In this document: positions 1,821 to 46,846 of the stretch, in pieces
Layout of the letters: every line of letters starts with the position of its first letter
Numbering within the stretch: the first letter of the stretch is position 1
Virus record (IMG/VR): IMGVR_UViG_3300025098_000044
Coordinates: 1-59,241 of that record
Reading direction: 5' to 3' (one strand)
Source of the DNA: a virus
Lineage: Duplodnaviria > Caudoviricetes
DNA length: 59,241 nucleotides
Program-made: the position numbers and the translations under genes
The notes under the pieces: generated by a model
Database searches by the model: none
Told to the model about the DNA's origin: nothing
Seen by the model: the letters and a program-made list of their open reading frames with translations, nothing else

Positions 1821-2082
1821 AAGAAAGCCCAGTAAGCGCATACCTAAGACCACTAAGGGTAAAGGAGCGAATTACCGCACCGCAAAAGCTGGTGCTGGTA
1901 TGACAAAAAAAGGGGTAGCGGCGTATCGTAAAGCTAATCCCGGTTCCAAGCTAAAAACTGCGGTTACAGGTAAAGTCAAAAAGGGAAGTAAAGCGGCCAA
2001 ACGCCGTAAAGCATTTTGCGCAAGATCTAAGAGTTGGAATGGTGAAAGAGGCAAAGCCGCTCGCCGTCGCTGGAAGTGTTGA
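1807..2082 (+). CDS. Highly basic 91-aa phage protein (DUF6321-like)
   Basis: GMTKKGVAAYRKANPGSKLKTAVT...RRKAFCAR...RRRWKC pattern; almost no acidic residues. Confidence 0.75.
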   Translation: MAASKRKPSKRIPKTTKGKGANYRTAKAGAGMTKKGVAAYRKANPGSKLKTAVTGKVKKGSKAAKRRKAFCARSKSWNGERGKAARRRWKC

Positions 2083-20254: not shown

Positions 20255-20535
20255 TGAGCGACATCGTTCTATTTGATAAACTTTCCGATGTTAAAAGGCT
20301 TACAACGGATGAGGCTTTTGGGCATCTTGAAAAACGGTTTCAGACCGAAAGAGGAAGATACCTCTCCAGGATGCTTGACCGCGAAACAAGTCCCGAGGAA
20401 ACAATTGCTCTCAAGGCCGTCGTTAACGCGTTGGAAAACTTATCGCCGATGGCTCTCGCGGAGACGGTCATCAAAATAGAATCGAAGAATCTTAAGAAAC
20501 ATAACCCCGAAATGTTTAAGGTTAAAAAAGCGTGA
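20254..20535 (+). CDS. Hypothetical helical protein (post-portal)
   Basis: Coupled to both neighbours. Confidence 0.7.
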   Translation: MSDIVLFDKLSDVKRLTTDEAFGHLEKRFQTERGRYLSRMLDRETSPEETIALKAVVNALENLSPMALAETVIKIESKNLKKHNPEMFKVKKA

Positions 20536-22331
20536 GTACTTATTACGAAGAGAAGGTGGTAGACCCACCAGTGGGTGATCCAATACCTTTTAAATTAAAC
20601 TACTCACCCAGAGCTTATGAGTTACCAGGTCAACCTATCTCGGTAGATAAATCGGGTACAGTTGCGGCTAGACAAGTCGGGGGTGGGGTTCCCCGCAAAC
20701 CTTTTAGGGTTACCGCTATAACCGAAGCCGCCAAACCAGCCACAGTAACCGCGGGAGCTTTACCTGAAAAACCATTTAGTATTTCTGTACTTACCAGTGT
20801 TGACGCTCCTGACTCCGTAACCGTAGTCGCCGCTCCTCGTAAACCAAATACAGTTTCAGTCCAAGCTGATCCTATTAAACCCGCAAGCGTAACTGCGGAT
20901 GCGATGCCTTTTGCCCCTACTTCCGTAGTTGCAGAATCAGATCCTAAAAAACCTATATCTGTAGATGCTGATTATATACCTCATGCACCCGCAAGTGTAA
21001 CTGCGGATGCGATACCTTTTGCCCCTACTTCCGTAGTTGCAGAATCAGATCCTAAAAAACCTATATCTGTAGATGCTGATTATATACCTCATGCACCGGC
21101 TATCGTTGAAGTAAACGCAATGCCTATTGCTCCTGTTGGCGTTGCAGCTTTTTCTGATCCCAAAAAACCTATATCTGTAGATGCTGATTATATACCTTAT
21201 GCTCCTTCATCCGTAGATGCCGATTACATCCCCTATGCACCGTCTGTTGTATCCGTTAATGCAGATCCTAAACAACCTTTAACAGTAGACGCCGATTACA
21301 TACCTTACGGCCCAGCATCAGTTTCAGCTGGCCAGGTACCAACCGTTCCTTCTTTAGTAGAAGCCGGCTTAATCCCCGAAGCTCCATCCACAGTTTCCGT
21401 ACTAGCAGCTCCTAGACAACCTAGCCTAGCCTATGCATTTGAGCCGTTTGTTGTAGAAATAATGGAAACAGAAGCTGAGATTAGGGCTAGACCTGCTAGT
21501 ACGCCCGAAGGAACTGTTGCATTTGGAACAGACACTAAGAAACTATATGTGTTCAATCAAACAGGAATGGATTCATGGGGTGCATTTGCAGAAGACGGTT
21601 TCTTTAGAACATCTGCATATGTTCCAATGAAATCCGCAAGATTTGAGGGACATCCAACTAATGATTACGGTATTGCGACTAATATAAATAGATTAAACGG
21701 TAACACATGGACTAAGGAATCCCCCACCACAATGTCAGGGTTTTTAAAGTTTACCGGGTGGGGAGGTGATCCGTCACCTTTTGGTACTAGTGGATTGCAT
21801 CCGGGTACTACATGGAACCCTGCAAGGGGCTCGTATTCTGATGGATTTCATGTAAACTCATCGGGGCGAGCTTATATGTGGTTTGGAGGTGGTCAACGAT
21901 GGATAACTAAAGACTCTGTTGCTCTTTATTTAGTGCAAAACACTTGGTATCACTTTGCATATACTCACGACGGTTCAACTTTAAGATGTTTTTTAAATGG
22001 AGATGAGGTATTCCCATCAACTCCAAACCAAACTTCTAGAAGGATAGCAATTCCTCAAATTTATGTATCAAAAGGTCGTTGGAATCAATCAATGTTTGGA
22101 ATGGTGGATCAAGTAGCATTTTGGGACAGTGTTTTAGATCAAACCACAATACAGAGTATCGCTAGTGGCGACAGAAACACCACCCTTACATACAATCCGT
22201 TAGCTTACTACTCTATGGATACCGAATCCAACGACACAGTCCCTGATACAAGCGGAAACTCTCAGCCTGACATGTACATGATACAAGACAATGCATCGGG
22301 TGCTGATCTTGTAGAAGAGGAGCCTAACTAG
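20532..22331 (+). CDS. Fibre/receptor-binding protein: ~22 x 12-aa P-x-x-P-x-x-V-x-A repeats plus C-terminal LamG/concanavalin-like domain
   Basis: Repeats in residues ~30-302; NTWYHFAYTHDGSTLRCFLNG...GMVDQVAFWD...PLAYYSMD is a LamG signature. Confidence 0.8.
   Translation: MSTYYEEKVVDPPVGDPIPFKLNYSPRAYELPGQPISVDKSGTVAARQVGGGVPRKPFRVTAITEAAKPATVTAGALPEKPFSISVLTSVDAPDSVTVVAAPRKPNTVSVQADPIKPASVTADAMPFAPTSVVAESDPKKPISVDADYIPHAPASVTADAIPFAPTSVVAESDPKKPISVDADYIPHAPAIVEVNAMPIAPVGVAAFSDPKKPISVDADYIPYAPSSVDADYIPYAPSVVSVNADPKQPLTVDADYIPYGPASVSAGQVPTVPSLVEAGLIPEAPSTVSVLAAPRQPSLAYAFEPFVVEIMETEAEIRARPASTPEGTVAFGTDTKKLYVFNQTGMDSWGAFAEDGFFRTSAYVPMKSARFEGHPTNDYGIATNINRLNGNTWTKESPTTMSGFLKFTGWGGDPSPFGTSGLHPGTTWNPARGSYSDGFHVNSSGRAYMWFGGGQRWITKDSVALYLVQNTWYHFAYTHDGSTLRCFLNGDEVFPSTPNQTSRRIAIPQIYVSKGRWNQSMFGMVDQVAFWDSVLDQTTIQSIASGDRNTTLTYNPLAYYSMDTESNDTVPDTSGNSQPDMYMIQDNASGADLVEEEPN
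20880..21097 (+). repeat. 108-bp (36-aa = 3 x 12-aa) near-perfect tandem duplication
   Basis: ccgcaagcgtaactgcggatgcgat... at 20881 and ccgcaagtgtaactgcggatgcgat... at 20989. Confidence 0.92.
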
Positions 22332-22353
22332 TCTTTAATTAAATAATTTTATC

Positions 22354-23442
22354 ATGAGCACAATATCATCAGTTTTATCAACAGCAAAACCTGTAGACCC
22401 CAACCCCGGATCTCTTTTCTATTTCACCGACACCAATCAGATTGGGATATATCAAGGTAACGGTACTTACTATATGTATAATCGAGACACTCTTGCATAC
22501 TCTTCAGGTGGTGAAGAACAATTAAACTATATTGACGGTTTATTTAGCGACTCTAGCTCAGATTATTATGTATCAACTACACCGAAATTTCATTATGATG
22601 CTGAATTTGTAAACGGTATTGAGCCAACCGCTCTAACAGAGGACTTTGACTTTGGGAGTGAATGGGCTTTTTACACATCCGGAAATAAGGGTTGGAGAAA
22701 CCGAGGGTCGTCTGATAGAGAAATAGCCTCGCCACATGTTTCAATTACTCCGCTTGGAAGGATGCAATGGGATAGTGAATTAAGAGCTGTTTACATAGCT
22801 AGTGGTAGTCTTATTTCGGGACCGGGTAATCCGGGGGATCCTGCAAACTCAAGCTATACTTTTAATGCAGATAAAAAGTGGACAATATTCATGGTCGCAA
22901 TTCCTGCCTCTTCAGGTAAGTTCATGGCGTTTGGTCACTCAAGTAATGGCGACTACTCACCTTTCGCTATTGCTCCGGGGGCAGGTCAAACCACTATGGG
23001 TGGTAAAAAAAATTGGGGCTTGGATGCAAACAATACTCAAGCATCAGATACGATAGTAGGAAATCGTTTGTCGCTTTATGTAGCACAGTGCGAAGGAATT
23101 AATGGATATGCTAATTGGTACACTCCTTCAAGCGAATCTGCTACAACTGATTCTGAAGGAAGGCTTAGACCGCATGTCACAATTACTGCAAATAATTATA
23201 CTACACAAACAAATATATTTGGAACCGGACAGGGTCTTTATGCTAATTCTAATAAGTGGTGTGAAATAATTGTATATGACGGAGATATTACTCAGGAAGA
23301 GATGGATGTAACTACTAGGTATTTGTACAATAAATACACTAACCGCATTCACTCAAATTTTGGGGCTACTAATAAAATTATTTATAACGACCCAACCACA
23401 TGGAAACTATTTAAGAAAAATGTGCACTACACCGCGACTTAA
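22354..23442 (+). CDS. Lectin-like (concanavalin A/LamG-type) virion protein
   Basis: FHYDA...W.N...EIIVYD..IT..E......YL..KY pattern; N-terminal PGSLFYFTDTNQIGIY resembles EGTVAFGTDTKKLYVF in 20532..22331. Confidence 0.65.
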   Translation: MSTISSVLSTAKPVDPNPGSLFYFTDTNQIGIYQGNGTYYMYNRDTLAYSSGGEEQLNYIDGLFSDSSSDYYVSTTPKFHYDAEFVNGIEPTALTEDFDFGSEWAFYTSGNKGWRNRGSSDREIASPHVSITPLGRMQWDSELRAVYIASGSLISGPGNPGDPANSSYTFNADKKWTIFMVAIPASSGKFMAFGHSSNGDYSPFAIAPGAGQTTMGGKKNWGLDANNTQASDTIVGNRLSLYVAQCEGINGYANWYTPSSESATTDSEGRLRPHVTITANNYTTQTNIFGTGQGLYANSNKWCEIIVYDGDITQEEMDVTTRYLYNKYTNRIHSNFGATNKIIYNDPTTWKLFKKNVHYTAT

Positions 23443-23444
23443 AA

Positions 23445-23482
23445 TACAACCACTAGAAATTTACCTTATTAACCCTTATTTT
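23445..23482 (+). promoter_or_regulatory. Late promoter (TACAACCACT ... TATTTT), leaderless start at 23490
   Basis: Motif 45 nt before ATG; -10 box at offset 32. Confidence 0.65.
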
Positions 23483-23489
23483 AAAAACT

Positions 23490-23828
23490 ATGGCAACAGT
23501 ACAAATATCATTCACAGATGCTTCTAATAACGAAACATCATTTAAAGTTTTCAGAAGCGACAACGGCGCGAGCGCTCAAAACGACGATACGAAAAAAATC
23601 GGAGATATAACTTATGTTGGATCCGATTGGCAAATCGCAGCAGCGAATAGCTTTGCTTCCGTAACTTTATATAGTAAACCAGCCTCAGGCTCAGGCCCAG
23701 ATGCTCAGGGACAGCAGTTCTCAGTAAGATATGAAGAAAGTGATTCTGGCGATTATAAATACGGAGTAGTAGCCTCAAACGATATCGGAGATTCAGATCT
23801 TACAGAAAGTTCAGTTGTATCGGTTTAA
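23490..23828 (+). CDS. Single fibronectin type III domain lacking strand A
   Basis: Starts at strand B (VQISFTDASNNETSFKVFRS, cf. LSWTDNSSNETGFKIERS) and ends with F/G strands YKYGVVASNDIGDS. Confidence 0.75.
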   Translation: MATVQISFTDASNNETSFKVFRSDNGASAQNDDTKKIGDITYVGSDWQIAAANSFASVTLYSKPASGSGPDAQGQQFSVRYEESDSGDYKYGVVASNDIGDSDLTESSVVSV

Positions 23829-29613: not shown

Positions 29614-31059
29614 ATGGCTAATAAATCATCAGCAGCAGCAGCACAGTCAGCACCCGGAACTTTCGGTAATGTTGACTTAATGAATGTAAATACTAATTAC
29701 TCAGGAGATATCTTCGGAGATTCAAACTTGCGCACCAGACTCTGGTCCGAGCTTGTAACTCGTGACGCTCGTGAGAAAAATGTATTTTCAAAATTTATCG
29801 GATCCGAAGGATCTGGTTCTCCAGTAGTGGAAAAACGCGATCTTAGCGCAGGCGGATCAGACAAGGTAACTTTTACAACAGTTGCTCCAATTCGTGGACA
29901 GGGCGTTCGTGGGGAAGAAATCCTCAAGAACTCAACTGGTAAGCTCAAATTTGGAACATTTAGTGTTGAAGTTGATCTTATCAGACACGCAGTAGCTTGG
30001 ACACAAGTTATCAAACTTATGCGTTTCACAGGTAAAACCATTGACCAGCTTTCAGCTGAAGTCATGTCCGAGTGGGCAGGACGCACTGAGCAGGATCATA
30101 TTCAAATGGTTCTCCGTGATACTTGCTTGAATGTAGCTACTTCTAACCTTATCTCAGGTTATGGTGCAGGGTCTAATCTTCAATACACAGAAGGTCTTAG
30201 TACTGACATCATTCAGGAAGCTAAACAAGCATTGATCGCCCAAGGTGGTGAGCCAATGAATGTTGGCGGTGATGACAAGACTGAAATCCCCGGTTACTTG
30301 TTCTTCGCACCAGACGCAGTTCTTCGCCCACTTCGTTCAGACCCTGACTACCTCGAAGCTATTTTACAAGCTGACGAGCGTAGCGGTTCTAACAAGTTGT
30401 ACAGCGGTAACTACGCAATGTGGGACGGTAATGTAATTGCTAACCATAATGTGTTGATTGACACAGCCGACGGACGCCAAGGTTCTCCTTTGCTTCCAAC
30501 AGCTTTGACAACCGCGTCTTTTTCTCCAGCTAACGGTGGGAATTTAGATCTTGGTAATGATACATTTGCTAATTTCCTAGGTTTTGACGCTAGAATCCCT
30601 GGCGCAGGCGGAGCAGTCTACAATGTATCCTCAGCTGGGCACTTCCTTATCGTAGCGCCTAACGGATCGTACTCATGCTTCGGTTATGGAAGTAACGACG
30701 GAGCTGCTCTTAAAACTCTCGCTTATAATGACATAAGCGGTGGTCAAGGCTCGAATCAGGAAGCTGATGGGACAGCGTTCCCAGCCGGTTCGATGATCTA
30801 TCAGTGTAACGCTGACGGAACCCCAATCGGATATGCATTGGCAATGGGTAAGAGTGCTTTGTACTACGCTAAAGGTGCAGTATCGAACGAGCAGATCTTC
30901 CATTATGACGATTTCGCAAATAGCGGAAACGAAGCTCACTTGTCAGCCGTAGGTATCCAGTCCGTTTACGGAATGGCTGCTTATCAAGACACCAACGGAA
31001 GAATTCCAGGTGTTCAGCTTGTCGAAGCAGTTCGTCAAATCCCCGGATTTAGCTATTAA
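29614..31059 (+). CDS. Major capsid protein (N4-gp56/DUF4043-like)
   Basis: DLSAGGSDKVTF...GQGVRGEEIL...F...VDLIRHAV motif; preceded by scaffold, followed by a strong terminator. Confidence 0.88.
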   Translation: MANKSSAAAAQSAPGTFGNVDLMNVNTNYSGDIFGDSNLRTRLWSELVTRDAREKNVFSKFIGSEGSGSPVVEKRDLSAGGSDKVTFTTVAPIRGQGVRGEEILKNSTGKLKFGTFSVEVDLIRHAVAWTQVIKLMRFTGKTIDQLSAEVMSEWAGRTEQDHIQMVLRDTCLNVATSNLISGYGAGSNLQYTEGLSTDIIQEAKQALIAQGGEPMNVGGDDKTEIPGYLFFAPDAVLRPLRSDPDYLEAILQADERSGSNKLYSGNYAMWDGNVIANHNVLIDTADGRQGSPLLPTALTTASFSPANGGNLDLGNDTFANFLGFDARIPGAGGAVYNVSSAGHFLIVAPNGSYSCFGYGSNDGAALKTLAYNDISGGQGSNQEADGTAFPAGSMIYQCNADGTPIGYALAMGKSALYYAKGAVSNEQIFHYDDFANSGNEAHLSAVGIQSVYGMAAYQDTNGRIPGVQLVEAVRQIPGFSY

Positions 31060-32466: not shown

Positions 32467-34284
32467 ATGCCGAACGATTTACGAATTAGGCAAATCGGTA
32501 GGGCTAAGATTGAAAAAGACTCAGCCGCCGGTTTTCAAAAGCTGACCCGTAAATATGCGGTCGAAGGTCCGAAAGCTAGTAAGATTGGTTTAGACGGCTC
32601 TTTAGATGGTGTGGCTTTGTTCAGAGAATACGGCGAACCTGATGAAGAATTCACAGATCACTATTTAATAAATCAAGCAATAGCCCCAGGCACTACTGTA
32701 GATAAAGCCACATTAACCCGTCAGTATGCACAACTAAGAGATACTTGGTACGGGTTGCAAACAAGCGAAAGCGGTCAGCTTAAAAAAATGACCCGTAAAT
32801 TTGTGGTTATTAAAAACAGTAACCATATACTTTCACAGTTGGGCGCTCCTAATTTAGGATACGATACCGAAGCCTGGAGCTTACACCCAAAGACCGGCCA
32901 AAATTCACCCGATGAAGCGGATAACTGGGACATGCTTCCAACTATAGTTAAACAAACCGAACCGGTTAATGTGTCCTATGCCGATGGTGATGCATCTGGA
33001 ACCATACCCCCAATAAAGCAACTATCATCGGAAAATGAGAACACAAGAGTTCTATTCCCCCGAGTTGTAAAAGTTCTCAGTAACACAAATGGGGATGTTG
33101 AACTAGAAGTTGTAGGCTCATCTCCGTGGAAATTGGGAGAACAAGCGTTTGAAAGTACTGAAGGTAAGGCTGAACTAGACACCAAACAAACATTTAATGT
33201 TGATGAAGAGTTTGTAGTTTTAGCGGATCCAAGATCGACTCCTTTTGCAATAGACGACCCGTCGACCTACGATCCATCGGATCTATATACATCTAGCATT
33301 GGTACGCTGGACATCGGCTCGACGCTTACACTTTCGGATTCAAATATAAAACCGGTCAAAGCAAATGTCCCATCCGTTTACTCTCAAACCGATGATGCTG
33401 ATGTTTTATACTCGTTACAAAATGCTACAAGAACTACTAATTTTGTTGAAGATTTAGCGGTACTCGAGAATAGAATTCCCACCCAGGAGGAAGCCACAAA
33501 CACGACGGTTGGAAACTTAATATGGGTAAGAGGAGCGTGTTCAGTAGACACAAGTAACCCAGGTATAGATCTGTGGACTGTCTCTTATGTGGCCCCGATT
33601 GCGTCTTATTGGACAGTTGGTTCTACGAGAGAAAAAGATATAAACCAACCCGTTATTGTGGCTTTTGACCATTTAGGTCTGAAAACATTTAAAACAACTT
33701 CCAAAAGGGTAGGTGGTTCTGCGGTATTTACTTATTTTACAGTTCAGGAACAGGTACCAATTCAGAGCTCTTCTTACACAAAGAACTCCGGATCAGTGTC
33801 TATGGATGTAAAAATCATCGGTATTAATGGAAGTAATGCTACGGCTACATTTAGACAGTCATTTAAAAATGCCGCTATGTATAAAACCGTAAGCGGTGGC
33901 GGAGGTAAGGGCGGTTCCACTGGGGTTCGTATGATGTGGCCTACAAAATACAAAATAATAGGTCTTCAATTTGGTAATTCCGTAGATTACCAACAAGTCG
34001 CCTGTTACGGAAGTGCTTGTTCTGATCAAGATTGGTTAACCGAGCCTCATTCCGACATGACCGATCGATCTTGGAAGTTTCATTGGCAAGCTGATGATAC
34101 TTTAGATACAATGAATCATCCGTGTTTTCAAGGTGAGCCTATTCAGTTAGCCGCGGGTCATATTACTTGGGATTCTACAATTTGGAACACTAGGGTTACA
34201 GCAACACCTTCGAATTTTAAAGTTACACCTATATTTTTCCATAATAAATTAAAAATCTGGAAAGTCGAAGTAACCTATTTTTAA
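32467..34284 (+). CDS. Virion/tail protein, function unknown
   Basis: 605 aa, beta-rich, in tail cluster. Confidence 0.65.
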   Translation: MPNDLRIRQIGRAKIEKDSAAGFQKLTRKYAVEGPKASKIGLDGSLDGVALFREYGEPDEEFTDHYLINQAIAPGTTVDKATLTRQYAQLRDTWYGLQTSESGQLKKMTRKFVVIKNSNHILSQLGAPNLGYDTEAWSLHPKTGQNSPDEADNWDMLPTIVKQTEPVNVSYADGDASGTIPPIKQLSSENENTRVLFPRVVKVLSNTNGDVELEVVGSSPWKLGEQAFESTEGKAELDTKQTFNVDEEFVVLADPRSTPFAIDDPSTYDPSDLYTSSIGTLDIGSTLTLSDSNIKPVKANVPSVYSQTDDADVLYSLQNATRTTNFVEDLAVLENRIPTQEEATNTTVGNLIWVRGACSVDTSNPGIDLWTVSYVAPIASYWTVGSTREKDINQPVIVAFDHLGLKTFKTTSKRVGGSAVFTYFTVQEQVPIQSSSYTKNSGSVSMDVKIIGINGSNATATFRQSFKNAAMYKTVSGGGGKGGSTGVRMMWPTKYKIIGLQFGNSVDYQQVACYGSACSDQDWLTEPHSDMTDRSWKFHWQADDTLDTMNHPCFQGEPIQLAAGHITWDSTIWNTRVTATPSNFKVTPIFFHNKLKIWKVEVTYF

Positions 34285-37200
34285 TGACAAACGAAGATTT
34301 ACAACAGGCTCTCAGAGAACTTGAAGAGCGTATTGACGGTATGGAGATCGATCTGACTCCACCCGAAGACGCTATGAGTAATTTTACCGTCTTTGAAAAT
34401 GAAGCTGGTGATCGTCAGATGATTGTCCACTTTATTGATGTAGCAGATTATGAAGTTGATCTGCCTAAGAGCAGAGAGGAAGCTAGAGCTGTTTTTCTTA
34501 AGGTTATAAAAGAGCATCAGAATCACCAAAATAGAGCGATCACGCATGGCGATTTAATGGTTCTTAATTGCCAGCCTTGTAATTACTATTGCTATGTTGC
34601 TAAGGTCGATAAAACTGGAGGAACCGGGTTTCAGGCTGAAGATAAGCTAGACCCGCCAGCAGCTATTACCGATCAACGCGGAGAGAGAATTTTGCACGAG
34701 CTTGTGATATGGACTGAGACTTACCCAAATGATGGGGGTTCTTCTCCAATATCAAGCTCTCTAATTAATATAACTGACGGAGATACTAATACTTTTAAAG
34801 TAACCGAGCTTTATTTAGAAGAACCAGAACCCTGCCCAGAAGTTACCGTAATCCCCGATATGTGGGATGTATTAGTCGAGTATAATATTGGCGATGAAGT
34901 TGAATACAACGGTAAGTATTATAAATCGAGATCTGTAAATGACGCCAGCCCGCCGGGCGAAGGTCTTGGGGGTGAGTTTCCCGATTGGATAGAAATAGAT
35001 GAGGAAGATTTAACTAAAAAAGAAGATTGCCCAAATCAAGTAGAACTCACAATACCAAAAGTAAAAATAGTTGATTCGGATGACTCCGAAACTAATGCTA
35101 ATTTTAAAGCTCGGTCTTTGGATATAGTTGTAACCCCTGGTACGGCTAAAACAATTGAGCATTATACACCAAATACAACTATCGTTGATTTAGACTGTGA
35201 TAAGGTTTTAACACCTATAATACCAGCTCTTTATACGGGATCAATCAGGTATGAGGCAGGTGATTATGTAAGCTATGCGGGGAAGTATTATAGAGCAAAA
35301 GAAGTCACAATAGACGACCCTCCCGACGATCCTATTGGTGAGGAATACTGGGAAGAAGTAGATGAAGCTGATTTACCTCAGGACACTCAAGATCCGTGTG
35401 TATTTGGTACTGCAAAAATTGATATTGAGCAACAAGCTGATATTAACGGGCCTCAGGAATTTAAGTCTTACAATATAGACACCACACCGGGTAATTTTGT
35501 AAAAGACGGAGCTCCTTTTAATATGCCTACGGTAACAGTTTCCATCGGTAATACGGGTACTCCTCAACCTTTTGACATGTACGCGATTACGCTGGCCCCT
35601 TGCGACCCCGTACCACCACCCGATTGGGATTCTAACACACTATACAACGGGGGTGAGATTGTTGGTTATAATGGTAAATTTTACCAAGCTTCAGACATCA
35701 GTCAGGGTAACTTTCCGGATGATGCAAATAATGCAGATCTTTGGACCGAAATACCTGAAGAGGATGCACAACAACCAGATCCCGAATGTGAATTTGACGA
35801 GACTTTTAATTTTGCAGCTCCTCAACTAAAAGACACAGATACCAAATCTCCAATTAATGTAGTAACTGGACTTCAGTTAGAAGCTAAGTGTAAATATGTA
35901 GACGATGGCTATGTAGAACTTTTATCAAAGTCCGATTTAGCAGAAACTGCCGAGGAATTCGCGGGCGGTACTGTCGATAGCAGTACTCTTAGATTTTTAA
36001 CAAGCCTTACTAAAAAAGATCAAAAGGACGGTGATCAGGAAAATGACGGAAGTCCTCAAAATATAATTACGGGTATAAATAGTTTAGCATTTTCAAATGG
36101 TGATTTCACATCCTCTGGATCACCAAAAAATGTGGTTTCTGAAATATCCAATATAGAAATAGATTCAGGAACACCTACTCCCGATGGTGAGTTTGAGGTA
36201 GTAATATCCGAATCTCAAGGAAGTCCCGATATTACAAACACACCCGTTTTCGAAACTTCGACGGGTTCTGACTGCGGAGGTTGTTTCGTAGTTAAACAAA
36301 CGGGTCAGCTTAAAATTACTAAAGAAACTTTTAAAGAAACTAAAAAAGTTTACGAAGTTGTAGAAACCCCATCTACTTTAAAAATAAATGGTAAAACTAT
36401 ACCTTTAGAACCGGGATACATACCTACCACCGTTTCAGCGGCCTATGCAACAGTGGATGCTCAAGGTAAGAAAAAACCATCTCAACTAACACTGGAAGCG
36501 GGTACTGCTTATTACTCCCCTATAACGGGTACTAAAGAGTTAGTTTTATCTGGTGAGAAAGAAAGAGTCACGGTTACGAACAGTACAAACCAGTTTAAGG
36601 TTAAAGGTACAACAAAAGACATTGTTCAGGTTGATAAGGTTTATGAATACAAAGGTAAACAGCTTTATATAAAAGGAAGTAAGCAGTTTTTAAACGCTAC
36701 AAAATCTACCGTAACATTTACATCCCTAGACTACAATATCGTAGTTTCTGATAACAAAAAACAACTGTATAAGAGAACGGATACCATCTACTTCAATAAT
36801 GGTAACAAACTTACTTTAACGCCTTATTTAACTAAAATAGTCCTCGATTATCAAAGAATGTATAAGCTAGATCGATCTAGCGTTTACATTGGTTGGACTG
36901 GTCATAAAAAGAAACTTACTCCCGAAGAAGCTAACATAACTTTAAGCGAAGAGTATGATGTAACTATTAAAAATGAAGATATTAAAGAAATTCATTTTGA
37001 AGAACTTAAAAAGTTAAAATTAATTCCTAAAACCTATACTTTAAAAAAATATTTACATGACTTAGAATTCACCGCTAAAAACCTTTCAGTAAGTACAACT
37101 AGCGCAAGTTTAGAATCAACAGAGTGTCAGACAGTTAAAGTAGAAACGGGGCCTACATCTAATAACGATTTTCAACTTCAATCGGGAACTGTTAATCTTA

Positions 37201-38432
37201 GTGAAACACCGGTAGAAGATGATTTAAACACTTTAGAAATAGAAGATGAAGGAACCGAACCAGGTGTTATATTTAAATCGTCAAAACTAGAGGCAACTTC
37301 CGAATACACTAAGCCCGCAGATACTAAAAAGATAAACGGTACTAAAGTAGAGGATGACACTCCACCTACACCACCAACTCCTCTAAACCGTAATGTTGCA
37401 GATGTAATAAATACGGAAACAAAGCCTAAAGATGAATACGAGATAAACCATGTAGATGTAGAGCTTGAGCCTTTAGATGACGATTACATAACTATTGAAA
37501 GTTTTAAGCTCGAAGATGAAACGGGTGGCGGTAGTACTCCATACCCAATTCAAAGCAGTTCGGTAAATGTAGGTAGCCCAGTCCCGCAAGCTGCTCAAAG
37601 AATGGATCTATTGGAAGTCGAATATGATGATGATCCAAACGGTGATTTAGGAGATGTTACAAGTACTCAATTAACAACTAATGATGGCACATCTATAGAC
37701 ACTGGCTATATAGATGGTTGTACAAGTTCTAAAGTAGCAATCGAAGATGGCACTGATCCAGAAGATGCAACAGTAACTATTGTAGACAGACATGCGGCTG
37801 TAGGTTTAGATGAGGAAAAAAAAGAGATAACCGTAGATATAGATATCCAATCTTTATCTTTTGAAAACCCAGGCACGACTACTGATTCAGATATAACCGG
37901 ACCAAATATAACCGGCATAACTATTGGAGCTGAATCCGCAACCAAAGAACTAGCCAACACCAGCGGGCCGACTTTTAAGACCATACAATTAAAAAATGCA
38001 GGTGCCGAAAAAACTATAACAAAAGCGACAACTGAGTTTGTAGAATCAGACCCTTCAAGCGTTGACTTGTTTATACCCCAACTGTCTAAATGCCCAGTTA
38101 ATAATGACACAATACATGTCCTGGACGATGACGCAACCGGTTCATCAACTGTAAGTATAAACTCTACCGCAAACATACTGTGCTTAAAAACGCAGATACC
38201 TTTCAAGAATTATACTATTGACTGCGGAGTTCTTTCTGGCGCGGGGGACACCGCAAATTATTCTTTTAACCATTGTTTTAATCTCCAACCATACTGGATG
38301 CATACTCTACAGGTATGTAATGCGAGCGGTCAGCCTGATAATATTACGGTGATGACAACTACGGATCCGTCTGTAGACGGTAATAAGGTTACGCCAGCTG
38401 GCTACACGATTCTTTCAGGAAGCTCGACTTAG
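34284..38432 (+). CDS. 1382-aa tail/fibre protein with three CBM5/12-like modules
   Basis: W/Y...Y..G(D/E).V.Y.GK.Y...W modules at ~34863, ~35232 and ~35625. Confidence 0.7.
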   Translation: MTNEDLQQALRELEERIDGMEIDLTPPEDAMSNFTVFENEAGDRQMIVHFIDVADYEVDLPKSREEARAVFLKVIKEHQNHQNRAITHGDLMVLNCQPCNYYCYVAKVDKTGGTGFQAEDKLDPPAAITDQRGERILHELVIWTETYPNDGGSSPISSSLINITDGDTNTFKVTELYLEEPEPCPEVTVIPDMWDVLVEYNIGDEVEYNGKYYKSRSVNDASPPGEGLGGEFPDWIEIDEEDLTKKEDCPNQVELTIPKVKIVDSDDSETNANFKARSLDIVVTPGTAKTIEHYTPNTTIVDLDCDKVLTPIIPALYTGSIRYEAGDYVSYAGKYYRAKEVTIDDPPDDPIGEEYWEEVDEADLPQDTQDPCVFGTAKIDIEQQADINGPQEFKSYNIDTTPGNFVKDGAPFNMPTVTVSIGNTGTPQPFDMYAITLAPCDPVPPPDWDSNTLYNGGEIVGYNGKFYQASDISQGNFPDDANNADLWTEIPEEDAQQPDPECEFDETFNFAAPQLKDTDTKSPINVVTGLQLEAKCKYVDDGYVELLSKSDLAETAEEFAGGTVDSSTLRFLTSLTKKDQKDGDQENDGSPQNIITGINSLAFSNGDFTSSGSPKNVVSEISNIEIDSGTPTPDGEFEVVISESQGSPDITNTPVFETSTGSDCGGCFVVKQTGQLKITKETFKETKKVYEVVETPSTLKINGKTIPLEPGYIPTTVSAAYATVDAQGKKKPSQLTLEAGTAYYSPITGTKELVLSGEKERVTVTNSTNQFKVKGTTKDIVQVDKVYEYKGKQLYIKGSKQFLNATKSTVTFTSLDYNIVVSDNKKQLYKRTDTIYFNNGNKLTLTPYLTKIVLDYQRMYKLDRSSVYIGWTGHKKKLTPEEANITLSEEYDVTIKNEDIKEIHFEELKKLKLIPKTYTLKKYLHDLEFTAKNLSVSTTSASLESTECQTVKVETGPTSNNDFQLQSGTVNLSETPVEDDLNTLEIEDEGTEPGVIFKSSKLEATSEYTKPADTKKINGTKVEDDTPPTPPTPLNRNVADVINTETKPKDEYEINHVDVELEPLDDDYITIESFKLEDETGGGSTPYPIQSSSVNVGSPVPQAAQRMDLLEVEYDDDPNGDLGDVTSTQLTTNDGTSIDTGYIDGCTSSKVAIEDGTDPEDATVTIVDRHAAVGLDEEKKEITVDIDIQSLSFENPGTTTDSDITGPNITGITIGAESATKELANTSGPTFKTIQLKNAGAEKTITKATTEFVESDPSSVDLFIPQLSKCPVNNDTIHVLDDDATGSSTVSINSTANILCLKTQIPFKNYTIDCGVLSGAGDTANYSFNHCFNLQPYWMHTLQVCNASGQPDNITVMTTTDPSVDGNKVTPAGYTILSGSST

Positions 38433-41659: not shown

Positions 41660-42396
41660 TCGAAGATATAACAGCTCAAACAACTAAGGAAATATTAGTC
41701 GAAGGTAAAAGACCCGACTTTTTAGGTTGGGCAAGACCTCCTAAATATAAAGGATATATTTTTAGCGAGAACAATAGCTCACTTGCCGGGCCTATATCTC
41801 AACACAATTTAACAACTATAACTTCCGATCAAAAAGCGGGTAATATGTATGGAGTTAATGAGTCAAATGAGCTCCTGGAATCTAACATAAAAGAAATAAA
41901 CGATCAGGTGTTTTCTAAAGCACCTGATGATTTATGGTGGGATATCGAGTACCCACTCGGTATAGATGAACACGGTATAGTTGGTTCCGAAACGGACGGG
42001 GCTTTTGCGTACAGAGGTAAAGCTTTGCAGGCTCCTTTCCACGAGCCAATGACCGGCGAAGCATACATTACAGATCCATTATATTTTAGAAACTCGTACC
42101 TTTCTATTATAGAAACAAACTGGGTTCACTTGGGTGACGAGCATAATGAAAAACAGTTGCACCGAATAGATCTTTCTTTTCATAAAAACTCCACGGGTCA
42201 CTTGTGGGGTTATGGTAAATCGGACGACGGGTTGGTTAAGGGTCAATATAAAGGGCTTATCCAAGAGCATATGAAAGTATTTATGAATCTTCGAGGTCGT
42301 CGGTTTAAATTTAAATTATTCGTAGCTACTCATAACAACTACCCGTGGGCACTTAGGGAAATGTCAATAGGGCACCTTTTTGGAAAGTCTTTTTAA
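41656..42396 (+). CDS. Probable C-terminal part of the tail nozzle
   Basis: IETNWVHLGD...K.L.RI.L.F...NLRGRRFKFKL resembles nozzle C-termini. Confidence 0.5.
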   Translation: MIEDITAQTTKEILVEGKRPDFLGWARPPKYKGYIFSENNSSLAGPISQHNLTTITSDQKAGNMYGVNESNELLESNIKEINDQVFSKAPDDLWWDIEYPLGIDEHGIVGSETDGAFAYRGKALQAPFHEPMTGEAYITDPLYFRNSYLSIIETNWVHLGDEHNEKQLHRIDLSFHKNSTGHLWGYGKSDDGLVKGQYKGLIQEHMKVFMNLRGRRFKFKLFVATHNNYPWALREMSIGHLFGKSF

Positions 42397-42950
42397 TGAG
42401 TGAATTAATTACTAAAGCGGAAGTTAACGAGAATATAGAAATATTACTCGGGCTTCCTCGTAAAATAGAAGCTGGTGTACAAACATCTATTAATTATGTT
42501 GTAATTTGCACTCATGCTGGAACACCCGAGCTTGTGTCTAGTGAGAATGATTTAATCATTGTACGAGACGAAGAAGGTAGAGATGTTACGGGTTATTATT
42601 GGTGGGCTAGGCCGGGCAAATATACCGTAGATGTTGTTAGTTTTGCAATATGCCCAGCTATTGGGCCTGAAAAAGCTCCACGAGATCTTACATATTTAAC
42701 AAACCCACCACCTGTGTCGGGGTTAAAGAGTTACGATTATGATAAACTAAGAGCGGCTTTAGATGCCAACCCTCCGTCTAGCCTTAAAGCCGAGGATAAA
42801 TCGTTCACCCACAGATCGAGCCCTTTTAATGCAAAATTAATTAATTTAAGATTGGATATAGAACCATCAAACGCGACGGTATCGAATTTAGATTTTAACA
42901 GTAATTCAAAGTCTCAACCTACAGATGTTCAATTACAAACGCTTACCTAG
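42396..42950 (+). CDS. Virion protein whose C-terminal half is ~6 strand-A-like peptides
   Basis: KAPRDLTY, PPVSGLKS, NPPSSLKA, SSPFNAKL, IEPSNATV, SQPTDVQL. Confidence 0.65.
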   Translation: MSELITKAEVNENIEILLGLPRKIEAGVQTSINYVVICTHAGTPELVSSENDLIIVRDEEGRDVTGYYWWARPGKYTVDVVSFAICPAIGPEKAPRDLTYLTNPPPVSGLKSYDYDKLRAALDANPPSSLKAEDKSFTHRSSPFNAKLINLRLDIEPSNATVSNLDFNSNSKSQPTDVQLQTLT

Positions 42951-42970
42951 GATTAACTCTAAACTATATT
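42934..42970 (+). promoter_or_regulatory. Late promoter (TACAAACGCT ... TATATT), leaderless start at 42977
   Basis: Motif 43 nt before ATG; -10 box ends 6 nt before ATG. Confidence 0.68.
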
Positions 42971-42976
42971 TAAAAT

Positions 42977-45178
42977 ATGGCTGACATAAGAATTAACTGG
43001 GAACCTCCCATAGACAAATCAATAGTAGATTCGATATCAATTTATAGATATGCGGGGGAAACATCCGATTGTAATATAATCCTTAGTGACGGGGTTTTAG
43101 TTGTTGAAAATTTAGCTGCCGACTCAAATAATTATGATGATCTAGGTATAGTTGATTCAAACCACTATAGTTACGGTGTGTTTTCTAAAAATGTTACAGG
43201 CTTCTCACCTTGTGCTCATGCTAGTCTTTCTTTAGTTCCTACGGTAGACGGGGCTCCAACTGATTTAACAGCCGTTTATGTTGCAGCCGCACCGGTAGAA
43301 GGGCCAACTAATATAATCCCCACACTTGAGGTAGCGCCGAAATATGGGATTGATACGGGTGTTTTTGTTTACCCATTATTTTTAACTGAAGCGGAGTCTA
43401 AGTATTACGATTCTCAAAACGGTGGAACTGGAACAGGTCATACAATGACTTATAATTCCGTGACTTATTATATGCCGGACAATGGTAGCACTCACGCCGG
43501 TACGGTGGCACCTGTAGGGGTGGCTATAAATGGTATTGAATTTAATTATGCTCAGATCGTAACTGGGTTTGAATATGGCCGTAAACCAACCAATAATCAA
43601 GGGCCGACATCACTTACTCTCAAAGTCGATATGGACGAAGATGGGTTTTATGCTGATGTCGACCTCGATGACAATGATAATTCGGTAAATGTTGCACCCG
43701 ATGCAAACAGTGCTCCTACCGATTTAACATCCACAGAACAAGCAACCGCCCCAGCGAGTGGGCCATCCGATTTAGGAACCGTCGCGAGCCCTAATGAAGC
43801 TCCTTCTGCTTTGGGGACAACGGCGAGCCCTAATGAAGCTCCTTCGGATTTAAGCACCACCGCAAGTCCTAGTGAAACACCTTCGGATTTAAGCACCATT
43901 GCAAACCCATCGCACAGCCCTATTAATTTAACTTCTGTTGAAGAAATATTAGCTCCAACTTTCGGACCGACTGATTTAATTACCACAACTTCTCCGGGGT
44001 CTCAATCTTCGGCGGATTCTTTTTCAGACTTACTTTATCCAATACCTGGGGGAATTATAAACGGGTTTTATGAAATGTACACGGGTCAAGGGGTGTTAGA
44101 AATTACGGCAACCACCGCTACCTGGGATGATGGTCTAGGGACGAATGTAGTTATCTGGAGTCAAAGTGGTGGGGATAGCCTTGCAACTACGACTAACTTT
44201 CTCGCGGGTTGGAATATTACAGCTTCAAACTACTTAAATGGTGCCTATCAGGATGTAACTATTTCCTACACCGCTACAAACCCTGAAGCTCCTTCCGGTT
44301 TAAGTACCCTTCTCGACGCCGATGAGGATGGTCACTATGCTGATGTAGACCTGGATGACAACGACAGTAGTACGGGCTTATACCCCGATAATGTCGAGCT
44401 TACTTATAATGGTGCTTTTACCTCAACTACGCCCGAGCTTCGTTACATACAAGGATATGGCCGTATAAAGAAAAATGGCGATACCCCGATGAATGGTGGA
44501 ACCTATATTTATATTATACAAGGTCAGACGGTTACTTTTACAAATGACACGACCAGTATGTTTTATCTCAGAAAACAAAACGATAGCGAAAATTTACTTT
44601 CAATAATGGGCCGACTCGCTCCTTCGAACACAGGCAGTTATACTTTCAACGAATTGGGTGACCACGGGTTCTCTACATCTAGTGTTGGGTCAATAACCCC
44701 AAGATTTAGGGTTGTACCGGAAACCGCCTTACTCGACACATTCGATGTTTTAGACCAGGGAGCAGCAGCCGGTCAAAATTTCGCGGGTAACTATAATTGG
44801 GATAATTACGAAAATAACCCTTCATCAATTGGTTGGTTACAAGGCATAGTGGATCACGGTAATACTGCAGGTCTTACCATTGTAGGAACAGTACCGTCGG
44901 GTTATTCAACTACACACGGGGCTATCATCTATAGAAAATCGGGTACAGATACATCCTCAAACGATGCAGATGCTGGTTTATTTAGATTTGAAACTATTAG
45001 CAACGGACAAGACACTAAGAAGTATCTTTATGCTTCTTTCGGGAGTGGGTCTTATAATAATCAGAAATTTTTTATTTACGAAATCACCGATCAAAGACCC
45101 TACACATATGGAGAGGCTCTTCCGAGTTGGTTCATAAGTGAACTAGCGGCAGAAGGTTACCATATATCATACACCTAA
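42977..45178 (+). CDS. Mosaic fibre: N-terminal FN3 lacking strand A, ~11 P(S/T)xL(S/T) peptides, two DxDEDG-x-YADVDLDDND motifs, C-terminal beta domains
   Basis: IRINWEPP...YSYGVFSKNVTGFS; 13-aa repeats at ~43712-43990; acidic motifs at ~43625 and ~44312. Confidence 0.72.
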   Translation: MADIRINWEPPIDKSIVDSISIYRYAGETSDCNIILSDGVLVVENLAADSNNYDDLGIVDSNHYSYGVFSKNVTGFSPCAHASLSLVPTVDGAPTDLTAVYVAAAPVEGPTNIIPTLEVAPKYGIDTGVFVYPLFLTEAESKYYDSQNGGTGTGHTMTYNSVTYYMPDNGSTHAGTVAPVGVAINGIEFNYAQIVTGFEYGRKPTNNQGPTSLTLKVDMDEDGFYADVDLDDNDNSVNVAPDANSAPTDLTSTEQATAPASGPSDLGTVASPNEAPSALGTTASPNEAPSDLSTTASPSETPSDLSTIANPSHSPINLTSVEEILAPTFGPTDLITTTSPGSQSSADSFSDLLYPIPGGIINGFYEMYTGQGVLEITATTATWDDGLGTNVVIWSQSGGDSLATTTNFLAGWNITASNYLNGAYQDVTISYTATNPEAPSGLSTLLDADEDGHYADVDLDDNDSSTGLYPDNVELTYNGAFTSTTPELRYIQGYGRIKKNGDTPMNGGTYIYIIQGQTVTFTNDTTSMFYLRKQNDSENLLSIMGRLAPSNTGSYTFNELGDHGFSTSSVGSITPRFRVVPETALLDTFDVLDQGAAAGQNFAGNYNWDNYENNPSSIGWLQGIVDHGNTAGLTIVGTVPSGYSTTHGAIIYRKSGTDTSSNDADAGLFRFETISNGQDTKKYLYASFGSGSYNNQKFFIYEITDQRPYTYGEALPSWFISELAAEGYHISYT

Positions 45179-45204
45179 AGACCAACTGATTCGCCAGCAG
45201 ATAT

Positions 45205-45242
45205 TACAACCGCTTTAAACTAACCTTAAACTCAAATATATT
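45205..45242 (+). promoter_or_regulatory. Late promoter (TACAACCGCT ... TATATT), leaderless start at 45249
   Basis: Motif 44 nt before ATG; -10 box ends 6 nt before ATG. Confidence 0.72.
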
Positions 45243-45248
45243 CAAATC

Positions 45249-45590
45249 ATGGCAAATGTACTATTAAATTGGACAGCTCCCGCGGATACATCTAATATCA
45301 CGGGCATCGTAATCTTAAAAAAATCCGTATCAGCGGGCTCATCCGTTCCATCATGTGGCGATTTTATTCCAGATGAAAAAATTAGAGGTGCCAACACGGC
45401 AGCCGACTTAACGGATAGCACTGTTTCTCAAGTAGGCTCGGATATTACCGACCCGGCTACTGTCGCGGCAAATGGTTCCGTTACTGAAACTGGTGTAACG
45501 GCTGGGAGCTACTATTACGCAGCATTTTCTTACAACGCGGCGGGATATTCCCCTTGCGATGTGACGAATTCCGAGCTTGTAATTTCTTAA
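45249..45590 (+). CDS. Single fibronectin type III domain lacking strand A
   Basis: Starts VLLNWTAP (strand B); ends YYYAAFSYNAAGYS (F/G strands). Confidence 0.78.
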   Translation: MANVLLNWTAPADTSNITGIVILKKSVSAGSSVPSCGDFIPDEKIRGANTAADLTDSTVSQVGSDITDPATVAANGSVTETGVTAGSYYYAAFSYNAAGYSPCDVTNSELVIS

Positions 45591-46741
45591 GCTACCCACA
45601 ATGCCAGCATATCTTTGCTTGGCATTAATTTGGCGTAGTATTTTGAAGTAACTTGAGGGCTTGTGTGTCTTAGATAACTCTGGGCTACATACAAGCCCTT
45701 AGTTGTTGCTAGATAAGATCCGTATAGCTTTCTTAACTCGTGCAAAGGGCTTTGTCGTGTCCAGCCGATATCTCTTAAAGAGTCAGTGACAACTTTCATC
45801 GTTTTTTCGGCAGTCCTAGCACGATCCGTTACAAGATAATCAAACCCCTCTGATTTATCTAAAATCTTTGAACCCCACGCGGCACTACCTGCCGTGTAAC
45901 CATCCATACCTCCTTTCGGTTTAAACTTACCTTCGGATTTAATACAGATAGCACAGCGATCGTCGTCAATATCTAACCAGTTCCGCTTAGCAAAAAAGAT
46001 CTCTTTCCGCCTCATACCAAAATGCAAGGCTAAAGCCATGATTACAAAATGATCACCGTCCACTTCATTCATTAATTTAAAAGTATCTTCGATTAACGAT
46101 GTCTCCGGTAATGTATAATCCTTCTTAACTCGGTTGAAAAATATCTCTTTCTTTAGGTAACTAAGACCTTCAAAACTCCAGCTCTCAGGATAATATGCCA
46201 TAGCGGTCTCGGAAAATACCGATTTAGCATTTCTAAGAAGAGTATTATATGATCTTTTCTTCTCACCTAGGGTAACTAAATCTTTAATACCCTCGACCCT
46301 ACGCTTTTTTTCTTCACGAAGCATCTTCTTAGTCAACTTCTTTAAAGGCAGTCCCATCGCTTCTTCGTCCGATAAACCTGTGACTCTATATAAACCTCTA
46401 CGATAACACTGAACCGTACGATCGCTTATACCGACTAAATTTTTATTTTCCTTAAGCATGTCGACAATCAACCCTAAGGTCGGCTGTATTCGGTCGTCGG
46501 GCTTAGGTGTTGGAGCGGGTTTACCTTGTTGTTTTTGTGGTGAATATTTTAATAAGGTTTCGGACACCGTATTAAAAACTAAGTAGGCATCGATCTCATC
46601 AGCCATCTCTTTAGCAATGTTTAAATCTTTTCCTAAATTAAAATACAGAGTTTTTTTATCTCTAACTATTCTGTAAGTCCAGTTTTTAGAACTTTGATTT
46701 CTTTTATATACGCGATTACCGCGTTTCGTTGTATACTTCAT
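45587..46741 (-). CDS. int: Tyrosine integrase
   Basis: FGMRRKEI (R), LHELRK (HxxR), LRHTS...TSKYY (H,Y); start reassigned to ATG 46741 with AAGGT upstream. Confidence 0.92.
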   Translation of the reverse strand: MKYTTKRGNRVYKRNQSSKNWTYRIVRDKKTLYFNLGKDLNIAKEMADEIDAYLVFNTVSETLLKYSPQKQQGKPAPTPKPDDRIQPTLGLIVDMLKENKNLVGISDRTVQCYRRGLYRVTGLSDEEAMGLPLKKLTKKMLREEKKRRVEGIKDLVTLGEKKRSYNTLLRNAKSVFSETAMAYYPESWSFEGLSYLKKEIFFNRVKKDYTLPETSLIEDTFKLMNEVDGDHFVIMALALHFGMRRKEIFFAKRNWLDIDDDRCAICIKSEGKFKPKGGMDGYTAGSAAWGSKILDKSEGFDYLVTDRARTAEKTMKVVTDSLRDIGWTRQSPLHELRKLYGSYLATTKGLYVAQSYLRHTSPQVTSKYYAKLMPSKDMLALWVA

Positions 46742-46779
46742 GTTGTACCTTTTTTTGACCCTTTTATGTTGATGTTTAA

Positions 46780-46846
46780 ACACCACATATTGTGTAAGTG
46801 TCATTTAAAAGCCAGTAGTGGTGCGGATAACTACCACATGTTGTGG
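46780..46846. promoter_or_regulatory. Two palindromic NrdR-box-like sites (or integrase arm sites) upstream of int
   Basis: ACACCACATATTGTGT (46780-46795) and CTACCACATGTTGTGG (46831-46846), 51 bp apart. Confidence 0.55.

Follow-up and report, generated by a model that had tools for sequence, protein, structure and literature searches.

Three adjacent open reading frames (ORFs) of a virus genome, P0001, P0002 and P0003, fill positions 42396 to 45590 of IMG/VR record IMGVR_UViG_3300025098_000044, a linear record of 59,241 bp with an estimated completeness of 87% which we analysed whole and refer to as the window. We find that P0003 and the N-terminus of P0002 are FN3-like domains that begin at strand B and so carry no strand A of their own, and that the gene preceding P0002 ends in a conserved peptide that is strand-A-like. 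This anatomy is real, conserved and unusual; the homology is clear, and the mosaicism of the gene that carries the second of these domains can be followed from relative to relative. As to what the anatomy is for, we propose that the incomplete N-terminal FN3 domain of P0002 would be completed in trans by the conserved C-terminal tail of P0001, and that this fold complementation, of the donor-strand kind, would fasten a variable fibre to a constant adaptor (P0001). P0003 would be a free copy of the P0002 acceptor domain, drawn from a large family of ~100-aa phage proteins, and would dock, less certainly than at the P0001-P0002 joint, on a similar strand supplied by a P0001 segment or by one of the repeated units of P0002. 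Strand complementation at the P0001-P0002 joint is in our view plausible and is the reading we tentatively favour; in it we infer both the binding and the strand-A geometry.

Two FN3-like domains begin at strand B

The smaller of the two proteins that carry these domains is nearly invisible to family searches: P0003 reaches no Pfam family at E <= 1, falls short of the gathering score of Pfam fn3 (PF00041) and has no PHROGs match. Its AlphaFold2 (AF2) model is confident (mean pLDDT 91, pTM 0.83, from an alignment of 24 relatives) and is a beta-sandwich of FN3 topology. In a Foldseek comparison with the PDB the top rows are FN3 domains, but at E values of only 0.01-0.2, and in the VIA structural comparison 50 of the 50 matches listed are FN3 domains (Z 7.2-8.4, root-mean-square deviation 2.0-3.3 Å, 74-95 residues aligned); the tool itself rates a Z below 8 as middling. 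With a family profile, FN3 chains in the PDB are matched at E 0.002-0.05 only, and positions 3-29 of the profile align with '..LtWt.P', the motif of strand B in the FN3 domains of MyBP-C and titin. Across 30 sequences W8, G86, N96 and G99 are invariant and Y90 nearly so, which gives the family the strand-B Trp and the strand-F Tyr of FN3. It is the uniform match list together with this sequence evidence that leads us to assign P0003 to FN3. An Atlas search gave FN3 and tail-tip Ig-like clusters as leads only, and in a BFVD fold search the matches were to FN3 domains from tail proteins, with E >= 0.018.

What is missing from these domains can be read off from where they begin. When isolated FN3 chains (PDB 8bw6, 8oty, 3b83, 4m6a and 6o03) are aligned to the P0003 model, it is their residue ~14-19 that falls on residue 1 of P0003. 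We also built a hidden Markov model (HMM) of 98 positions from 11 natural intact FN3 repeats of two database matches; residue 3 of P0003 lies at its position 16 and residue 5 of P0002 at its position 18, and positions 1-13/15, strand A included, have no counterpart in either protein. The N-terminus of P0002, which ESMFold2 models at pLDDT 78-79, is homologous to the stand-alone family of which P0003 is a member and runs in register with it from Met1 (hhalign 98.7%, E 1.6e-16, residues 1-106 against 1-90). There is no upstream in-frame start for P0002 or P0003 from which a strand A might be supplied, and stop codons stand directly upstream, in frame, of both. Structure, HMM, homology and upstream stops thus agree with a preliminary description of this DNA, made from the letters alone, which had both domains start at strand B. 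Neither is a seven-strand FN3 domain with strand A present; each has the form of an incomplete Ig-like acceptor in which the missing strand is the N-terminal one.

Judged by its relatives, the start at strand B is conserved and not an accident of one genome. Close relatives of P0003 make up 26 clusters (103-113 aa, 98-100% of the query covered), and M1, N3, V4, L6, W8, A10 and P11 are common to the 24 close relatives that were aligned. A search of 1.84 billion representatives with the family profile returned 56 matches, 28 of which were retrieved; 27 retrieved relatives of 89-154 aa and one of 265 aa start at the same strand as P0003, the exception being P0045 (190 aa), whose N-terminal extension could hold a strand A. 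Most of the remaining profile matches are long multi-domain proteins, many of them with ordinary FN3 arrays (three inspected). All 30 aligned stand-alone relatives open with M[AS]..[VIL].[LIVM].W, and the stand-alone family numbers at least 27 clusters at 50% identity, with no Pfam or PHROGs match. A third member is encoded elsewhere in the window, by ORF 23490 (hhalign 94.3%, E 1e-7). In P0002 the same stretch of sequence is held still more tightly at its start: M1, A2, D3, I4, R5, I6 and W8 are invariant in 12 of 12 P0002-family proteins.

Two cysteines of the domain, one after strand C and the other at the start of strand G, occur together in 18 members of the 30-member alignment, are both absent from 12 and never occur singly; P0003 has the pair, and P0002 has it at the aligned positions (Table 1). 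Covariation this strict points to a disulfide, and with it to a domain exposed in the extracellular virion.

A strand-A-like tail ends the preceding gene

P0001 has no match in Pfam or PHROGs and nothing in the Atlas. It has four homologues, at 67-91% identity, and all five proteins of this family end in P[TS][DN]V[QT]LQT[LI]T-stop. The most distant relative (67% identity) keeps the tail even though it is without the 15 residues just before it. Of the candidate split domains, the one divided between this tail and P0002 has the strongest case, and it was not picked out in the preliminary description. P0001 had been described as ending in six strand-A peptides; only the last of them fits the motif, and the other five are looser, irregularly spaced P..L segments. 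Residues 59-72 of P0001 (EEGRDVTGYYWWAR, 42570-42611) show a weak alignment, short of significance (score 2.8), with the part of the intact-FN3 HMM that covers the B-C loop and strand C, and the N-terminal half of P0001 may itself be Ig/FN3-like.

P0002 (MADIRINWEPP) starts 26 nt past the TAG of P0001 and in another frame, and the spacer is 26 nt long both in the window and in L004, the one locus of a metagenome scan in which the upstream genes were reached. Counted across the spacer, the tail (10 residues from its Pro) and MADIRINW together give 18 residues from Pro to Trp; in the intact FN3 repeats of P0052 and P0060 the same Pro and Trp are ~19-20 residues apart. The boundary between the two genes would fall where the A-B turn of an intact domain would be. 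The separate late promoters once attributed to P0002 and P0003 are not confirmed by a count of sites: there are 11 sigma-70-like sites where chance predicts 10.9, and the TAAACT...ATAT pattern that the two have in common shows no enrichment, with 13 occurrences against an expected 8.7. What stands there instead is an AT-rich spacer, 26 nt before P0002 and 70 nt before P0003.

When P0001 is co-folded with residues 1-100 of P0002, the median ipSAE is 0.55 (runs 0.45, 0.56 and 0.55), against 0.00 for each of three controls; the partner has pLDDT >= 78, at least 68% of contacts are common between runs, and the verdict of the tool is 'weak support'. Of the pairs used for calibration, 58 of the 80 solved complexes and 2 of the 110 mismatched pairs came up to the mark, and the scores of 0.60 or below comprised 7 of the 80 solved complexes and both of the mismatches that passed. 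Because the two genes are adjacent, the anchor is constant and the tail is conserved, binding was fairly likely beforehand, and the weak pass raises it further. The completion of an acceptor in trans, for which the preliminary description had looked to co-folding, receives partial support from this weak pass, which came as a score and not as a view of the interface.

Several points weigh against completion of P0002 by the P0001 tail. By the calibration just given, a pass as weak as this is more often wrong than right unless the pair was likely beforehand; with no interface delivered along with the score, we infer the placing of the tail in the strand-A slot; and P0001 itself has a pLDDT of 39-52 in the co-fold. 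The tail does not align to the strand-A positions of the intact-FN3 HMM, so its likeness to strand A rests on a short motif and on length. P0003 folds at pLDDT 91 with no partner at all, so the six-stranded domain may be self-sufficient. An analysis of covariation would need a deeper family than that of P0001, which has only 5 members, all at >= 67% identity. Finally, no consistent strand-like tail is found upstream of the relatives of P0003, where the endings are, for example, ...HISYT, ...IVEYTHP and ...FYNPNTY.

P0002 combines a constant anchor with exchangeable cassettes

P0002 is an ORF of 733 aa (42977-45178) with no Pfam match except a stray RXT2_N row, no meaningful PHROGs match and no PDB sequence match. 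Its first 100 residues recur in eleven database proteins (449-1062 aa, 52-97% identity, 97-100% of the query covered), and in these relatives the first ~230 residues are conserved, with invariant columns through residue 213, after which the cassettes change: FGE-sulfatase (PF03781), RCC1 repeats (PF00415) and unknown beta-rich domains all occur. Residues 128-196 (43358-43564) match the 'fiber Ig/hemolysin' of cyanophage PSS2 (E 1e-7, 43% identity), and Synechococcus phage S-B68 matches the same residues (E 1e-7 to 5e-7 and 43-47% identity for both phages); these cyanophage fibres are the sole matches to cultured phages. From the conserved N-terminus, the changing cassettes and the likeness to cyanophage fibres we conclude that P0002 is, by all sequence indications, a fibre or adhesin of mosaic build, in which the anchor is constant and the heads can be exchanged. 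It has the constant N-terminal anchor, the variable distal domains and the location in the late structural block that such a protein should have, and its presence in the virion is predicted.

The orthologue in L004 shows how the cassettes move. It has 1051 aa and is 86% identical over the collinear part, and a ~90-residue cassette that is internal in window P0002 is C-terminal there (blastn: window 44148-44259 to L004 8583-8694). DNA collinearity between the window and L004 breaks inside the strand-A-like units treated below, and a blastn junction follows the P0002 stop at about position 45203 of the window. The TAA stop of window P0002 is a Lys codon in L004, where the frame continues as KRPIDSPANITAVEE... 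into further cassettes. Two other relatives end near the same place, P0034 with ...GYHISYT, as in window P0002, and P0029 with ...GYHITTALN, so we take the stop in the window to be an established variant and not an error.

The FGE-sulfatase and RCC1 cassettes are found in P0002 orthologues (L004 5576-8731; P0030-P0039), and the window is without them; the targets of diversity-generating retroelements are often built on an FGE-like fold. P0002 also has two acidic motifs that are nearly identical (D.DEDG.YADVDLDDND), each directly after a unit (43625-43681 and 44318-44374), the first of them, DxDEDGxYADVDLDDND, in the second region of the protein; we take them to resemble calcium-binding loops.

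Strand-A-like units mark the joints of the mosaic

Peptides of the strand-A type had been said to be concentrated in P0002, and a count agrees: the motif occurs 9 times there and 2 times in the other 25 plus-strand ORFs scanned, one of these two matches being the C-terminus of P0001. With the looser pattern P-[TS]-x-L we find 10 units in P0002, seven of them in tandem, at spacings of 16, 13, 13, 13, 13 and 16 residues (P0002 residues 244-343). The tandem array that was described is therefore real, and its spacing is 13 and 16 rather than 13 alone. The P0002 units have 42% of residues and 51% of bases in common, residues identical between units use the same codon at only 59 of 115 positions, and Tandem Repeats Finder (TRF) detects no DNA repeat in the array. 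Codon drift, low base identity and the lack of a TRF match together argue that the repeat is old and held at the peptide level; the units, to judge by their codons, are kept by selection on the peptide and not by recent DNA duplication.

Units are present in 12 of 12 P0002-family proteins, 4 to 13 in each, spaced by 13 or 16 residues and now and then by 14, 17 or 18, and every cassette boundary in the family has at least one. Their distribution makes them conserved joints between cassettes, with recombination breakpoints within the units, and this is at least one role that they have. No unit aligned to strand A in the intact-FN3 HMM. The 16-residue flavour (TSVEEIL), with hydrophobic residues at i, i+3, i+6 and i+7, looks on inspection more helical than strand-like, and an AF2 model of P0002 residues 1-360 (12-row alignment), at a mean pLDDT of 31.7, is unusable for cis docking and so lends no support to the self-complementation of P0002 that the preliminary description had suggested.

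A rival reading is that nothing is split at all. The units would then be Pro/Ser/Thr-rich linkers and recombination joints, perhaps descendants of an FN3 N-terminus, and the six-stranded domains would be autonomous and bind via other surfaces. In favour of this, the units do lie at every cassette boundary, collinearity between the window and L004 breaks inside them, and their number varies among relatives; P0003 is modelled confidently alone, the array is modelled as coil (though in the model just called unusable), and three related loci, L013, L015 and L016, have a small FN3 gene and no array in the available flanks. We regard this as a distinct possibility, of which we nevertheless remain doubtful, since flexible spacers rarely keep a fixed P-[TS]-D-L-[TS] core and a quantised 13/16 spacing while codons drift. 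It also leaves unexplained the strand-B start in 30 of 30 stand-alone relatives, the conserved P0001 tail, and the weak co-fold pass beside controls at 0.00.

Another module of the window and related loci

An array and a small FN3 gene also stand together in the first module of the window (20532-23828). Here a 599-aa ORF at 20532 carries 12-residue P..P.SV units and a Laminin_G_3 domain, and TRF reports a DNA repeat in it (period 108 nt x 3.0 copies at 20879-21202). ORF 22354 ends in ...NVHYTAT-stop, 47 nt upstream of the strand-A-less FN3 encoded by ORF 23490 (MATVQISF...). Loci of a distant subfamily are syntenic with this module, with the portal followed by a 93-aa MSDIVxFD protein. Neighbour proteins with arrays of GP[QS]NL[ST]S-type units at 12-15-residue spacing are found in 6 of 10 such loci; no array was seen in the remaining 4, that is, in L012, whose contig ends near the gene, and within the available flanks of L013, L015 and L016. 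At L013 (5004), L015 (2893) and L016 (5004) the small FN3 gene starts at the portal stop codon, which suggests coupled translation and perhaps a head- or neck-associated role. The loci without an array, and the varied upstream endings, do not support an obligatory pairing of array and domain; occasional pairing is compatible with them. What had been described as one and the same pairing in both modules survives in that a third A-less FN3 is indeed encoded at 20.6-23.8 kb, and is not supported as a rule, given three loci with no array in the available flanks.

Separately, in L008-L012 and L017 a DNA element is conserved between genes, ~50-70 nt ahead of the small FN3 gene. It reads KPTD-stop-stop, SQPIDN or ANRLIT depending on the frame, is absent from the window and is probably regulatory.

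The preliminary description went further and inferred orthogonal peptide/domain pairs. In a model along these lines each 13/16-residue unit would dock a free A-less FN3 (P0003), which would turn the array into a beads-on-a-string shaft, with Leu and Val flavours each paired with their own domains. Arrays and A-less FN3 genes do stand together in both window modules and in the 6 distant-subfamily loci, and 13-16 extended residues would span ~44-54 Å, about the length of an FN3 domain along its long axis, so it is sterically conceivable that beads pack head to tail. Set against this, 4 of the 10 related loci show no array, the TSVEEIL flavour looks more helix-like than strand-like, and as many as 13 sites would depend on a single gene copy; we consider the model unlikely. 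The tag/catcher reading of the arrays is speculative. It would make of this marine phage lineage the host of a natural non-covalent tag/catcher system, consisting of ~100-aa A-less FN3 domains and of strand-A peptides placed at C-termini and in arrays, with fibres fastened to adaptors, arrays coated with FN3 beads as a shaft, and Leu/Val flavours that keep the modules apart; taken as a whole, we think this quite unlikely.

The units might instead form a structured trimeric shaft of the beta-spiral or beta-helix kind in a homotrimeric fibre, with the free edge of the A-less domains used to homo-oligomerise. Fibre shafts typically show short periodic repeats with fixed Pro/Gly positions, and the 16-residue units hold ~5 hydrophobic residues; the 13-residue units, however, have one Leu and few Ala, too polar for a buried trimer core, and no shaft-like family or structure was matched, which leaves this a very improbable account. 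An intact FN3 domain could also arise if read-through, a frameshift or ribosome hopping yielded a single polypeptide from P0001 and P0002 (or from P0002 and P0003). This would suit the mere 26 nt between tail and start and the joined length that fits FN3, but is scarcely credible: the P0001 frame meets a TAG and, one codon further on, a TAA in the spacer; P0002 is read in a different frame, where a TAA stands two codons ahead of the ATG; the Met-Ala start is retained by all family members; and no fused P0001-P0002 protein is among the 11 matches of a search over 403-1283 aa, a range that includes the 917-aa fusion.

Genome context

The window contains a terminase, an SU10-type portal, a capsid protein, a CBM5/12 fibre and an integrase (Table 1), from which we take the context to be that of a phage, and the other strand of the window also encodes a primase/helicase-like protein, a family A DNA polymerase and a helicase (family scans). 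In what we consider the best explanation, the region forms the distal fibre/adhesin module of a podovirus-like phage from the sea that is temperate and uncultured. The stop codons of P0003 and of the convergent integrase share 4 nt (45587-45590), and the fibre module directly adjoins the integration module.

Contigs related to the window are metagenomic. In the phage collection there was no match for the DNA of the region, P0003, P0057, the capsid protein or the portal, and the metagenome scan that yielded L004 gave 4 loci in all. The viral-contig search found no locus for P0003, alignment A1, P0053 or alignment A3, and the genome-contig search for further loci gave one spurious partial match only.

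Table 1. Features of the P0001-P0003 region and of the surrounding window (positions in the window).
Feature	Positions	Strand	Basis
P0001, 184 aa, putative adaptor; several conserved P..L segments in C-terminal half	42396..42950	+	ORF, homologue alignment
C-terminal tail SQPTDVQLQTLT of P0001, candidate donor strand	42912..42947	+	translation, alignment
TAG stop of P0001 and 26-nt AT-rich spacer	42948..42976	+	sequence
N-terminal FN3-like domain of P0002, residues 1-88, without strand A; constant family anchor	42977..43240	+	hhalign, 12-sequence alignment
P0002 C32/C79, at positions aligned to the P0003 pair	43070-43072, 43211-43213
P0002 second region, residues 89-243: units at ~91-103 and 207-219, fibre-like domain, acidic motif	43241..43705	+	conservation
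Tandem array of seven strand-A-like units, P0002 residues 244-343	43706..44005	+	spacing analysis
~90-residue cassette, P0002 residues 346-435; C-terminal in L004 orthologue	44012..44281	+	blastn
Isolated unit PEAPSGLSTLL, then second acidic DADEDGHYADVDLDDND motif	44282..44374	+	sequence
C-terminal domain(s) of P0002, residues 467-733, and TAA stop; no known family	44375..45178	+
Relic unit RPTDSPADITTALN-stop in P0002 frame, after P0002 stop	45179..45223	+	translation
P0003, stand-alone FN3-like protein, 113 aa, without strand A; conserved cysteine pair	45249..45590	+	ORF, AF2, FN3 matches
P0003 C36/C103	45354-45356, 45555-45557
Terminase	2076-3839		family scan
3825-aa single ORF	6517-17994		LPD38 'large polyvalent protein' domain at residues 3503-3708
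SU10-type portal	18006-20045		family scan
Capsid protein	29614-31059		family scan
1382-aa protein with CBM5/12 module	34284-38432		family scan
Integrase	45587-46804	other	family scan

Comparison with known systems

The closest working analogy to the proposed P0001-P0002 joint is donor-strand complementation in pili, both chaperone-usher and type V, where an incomplete Ig-like sandwich is likewise completed by the terminal strand of another subunit. In the type V pili of Bacteroidia, as set out in one report (PMC13655056), a C-terminal donor strand fills the groove that is freed when an N-terminal strand is removed; the polarity is the one we propose for the C-terminal tail of P0001 and the N-terminal strand-A slot of P0002. 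The differences are several. The fold here is FN3-like and not pilin or transthyretin-like; the missing strand is left out at the level of the gene, unlike in type V pili, where a protease removes it, so that the groove here would be open from synthesis; no chaperone, usher or protease turned up in our analysis, in which none was looked for; and what we propose is the binding of a hetero-pair and not a polymer.

Engineered FN3 domains can be rebuilt from fragments and can swap their N-terminal strand between molecules. Engineered FN3 fragment complementation is reportedly the subject of Dutta et al. 2005. Among the structural matches of P0003 is PDB 4m6a, entitled 'N-terminal beta-strand swapping in a consensus derived alternative scaffold'. 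Those are laboratory constructs, whereas the split in P0001 and P0002 would be natural, conserved and placed at a gene boundary. With the mosaic fibres and receptor-binding proteins of other phages P0002 has in common its constant N-terminal ~230 residues, its variable cassettes and its position at the end of a structural block; it differs in that its anchor is an FN3 domain without strand A, and in that its joints are a fixed, repeated strand-A-like peptide in place of arbitrary linkers.

The preliminary description had drawn an analogy to SpyTag/SpyCatcher, which holds as far as a short peptide and a truncated beta-sandwich go. The origin of SpyCatcher is a CnaB domain, and it joins its tag through an isopeptide bond (Lys/Asp(Asn)/Glu triad); here we see no sign of covalent chemistry, and the structural matches are to FN3 and not to CnaB.

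Significance

A full-text literature search that covered the main text of papers outside subscription journals turned up no account of phage fibres or receptor-binding proteins that are completed by strand complementation. If the proposed mechanism is true, one phage fibre protein would here supply a strand to another, the FN3 domain being split between two neighbouring genes, and the small natural peptide/domain pairs could be of use in protein engineering. Even without strand exchange, the fixed peptide joints between cassettes make P0002 and its relatives a clear case of modular fibre evolution, and the cysteine pair, by its strict covariation, points to the domain as a part of the virion that is exposed. 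With strand exchange, the anatomy would explain how a constant adaptor holds freely exchangeable fibres, and would give a function to a sizeable family of ~100-aa phage proteins that matches nothing in Pfam or PHROGs.

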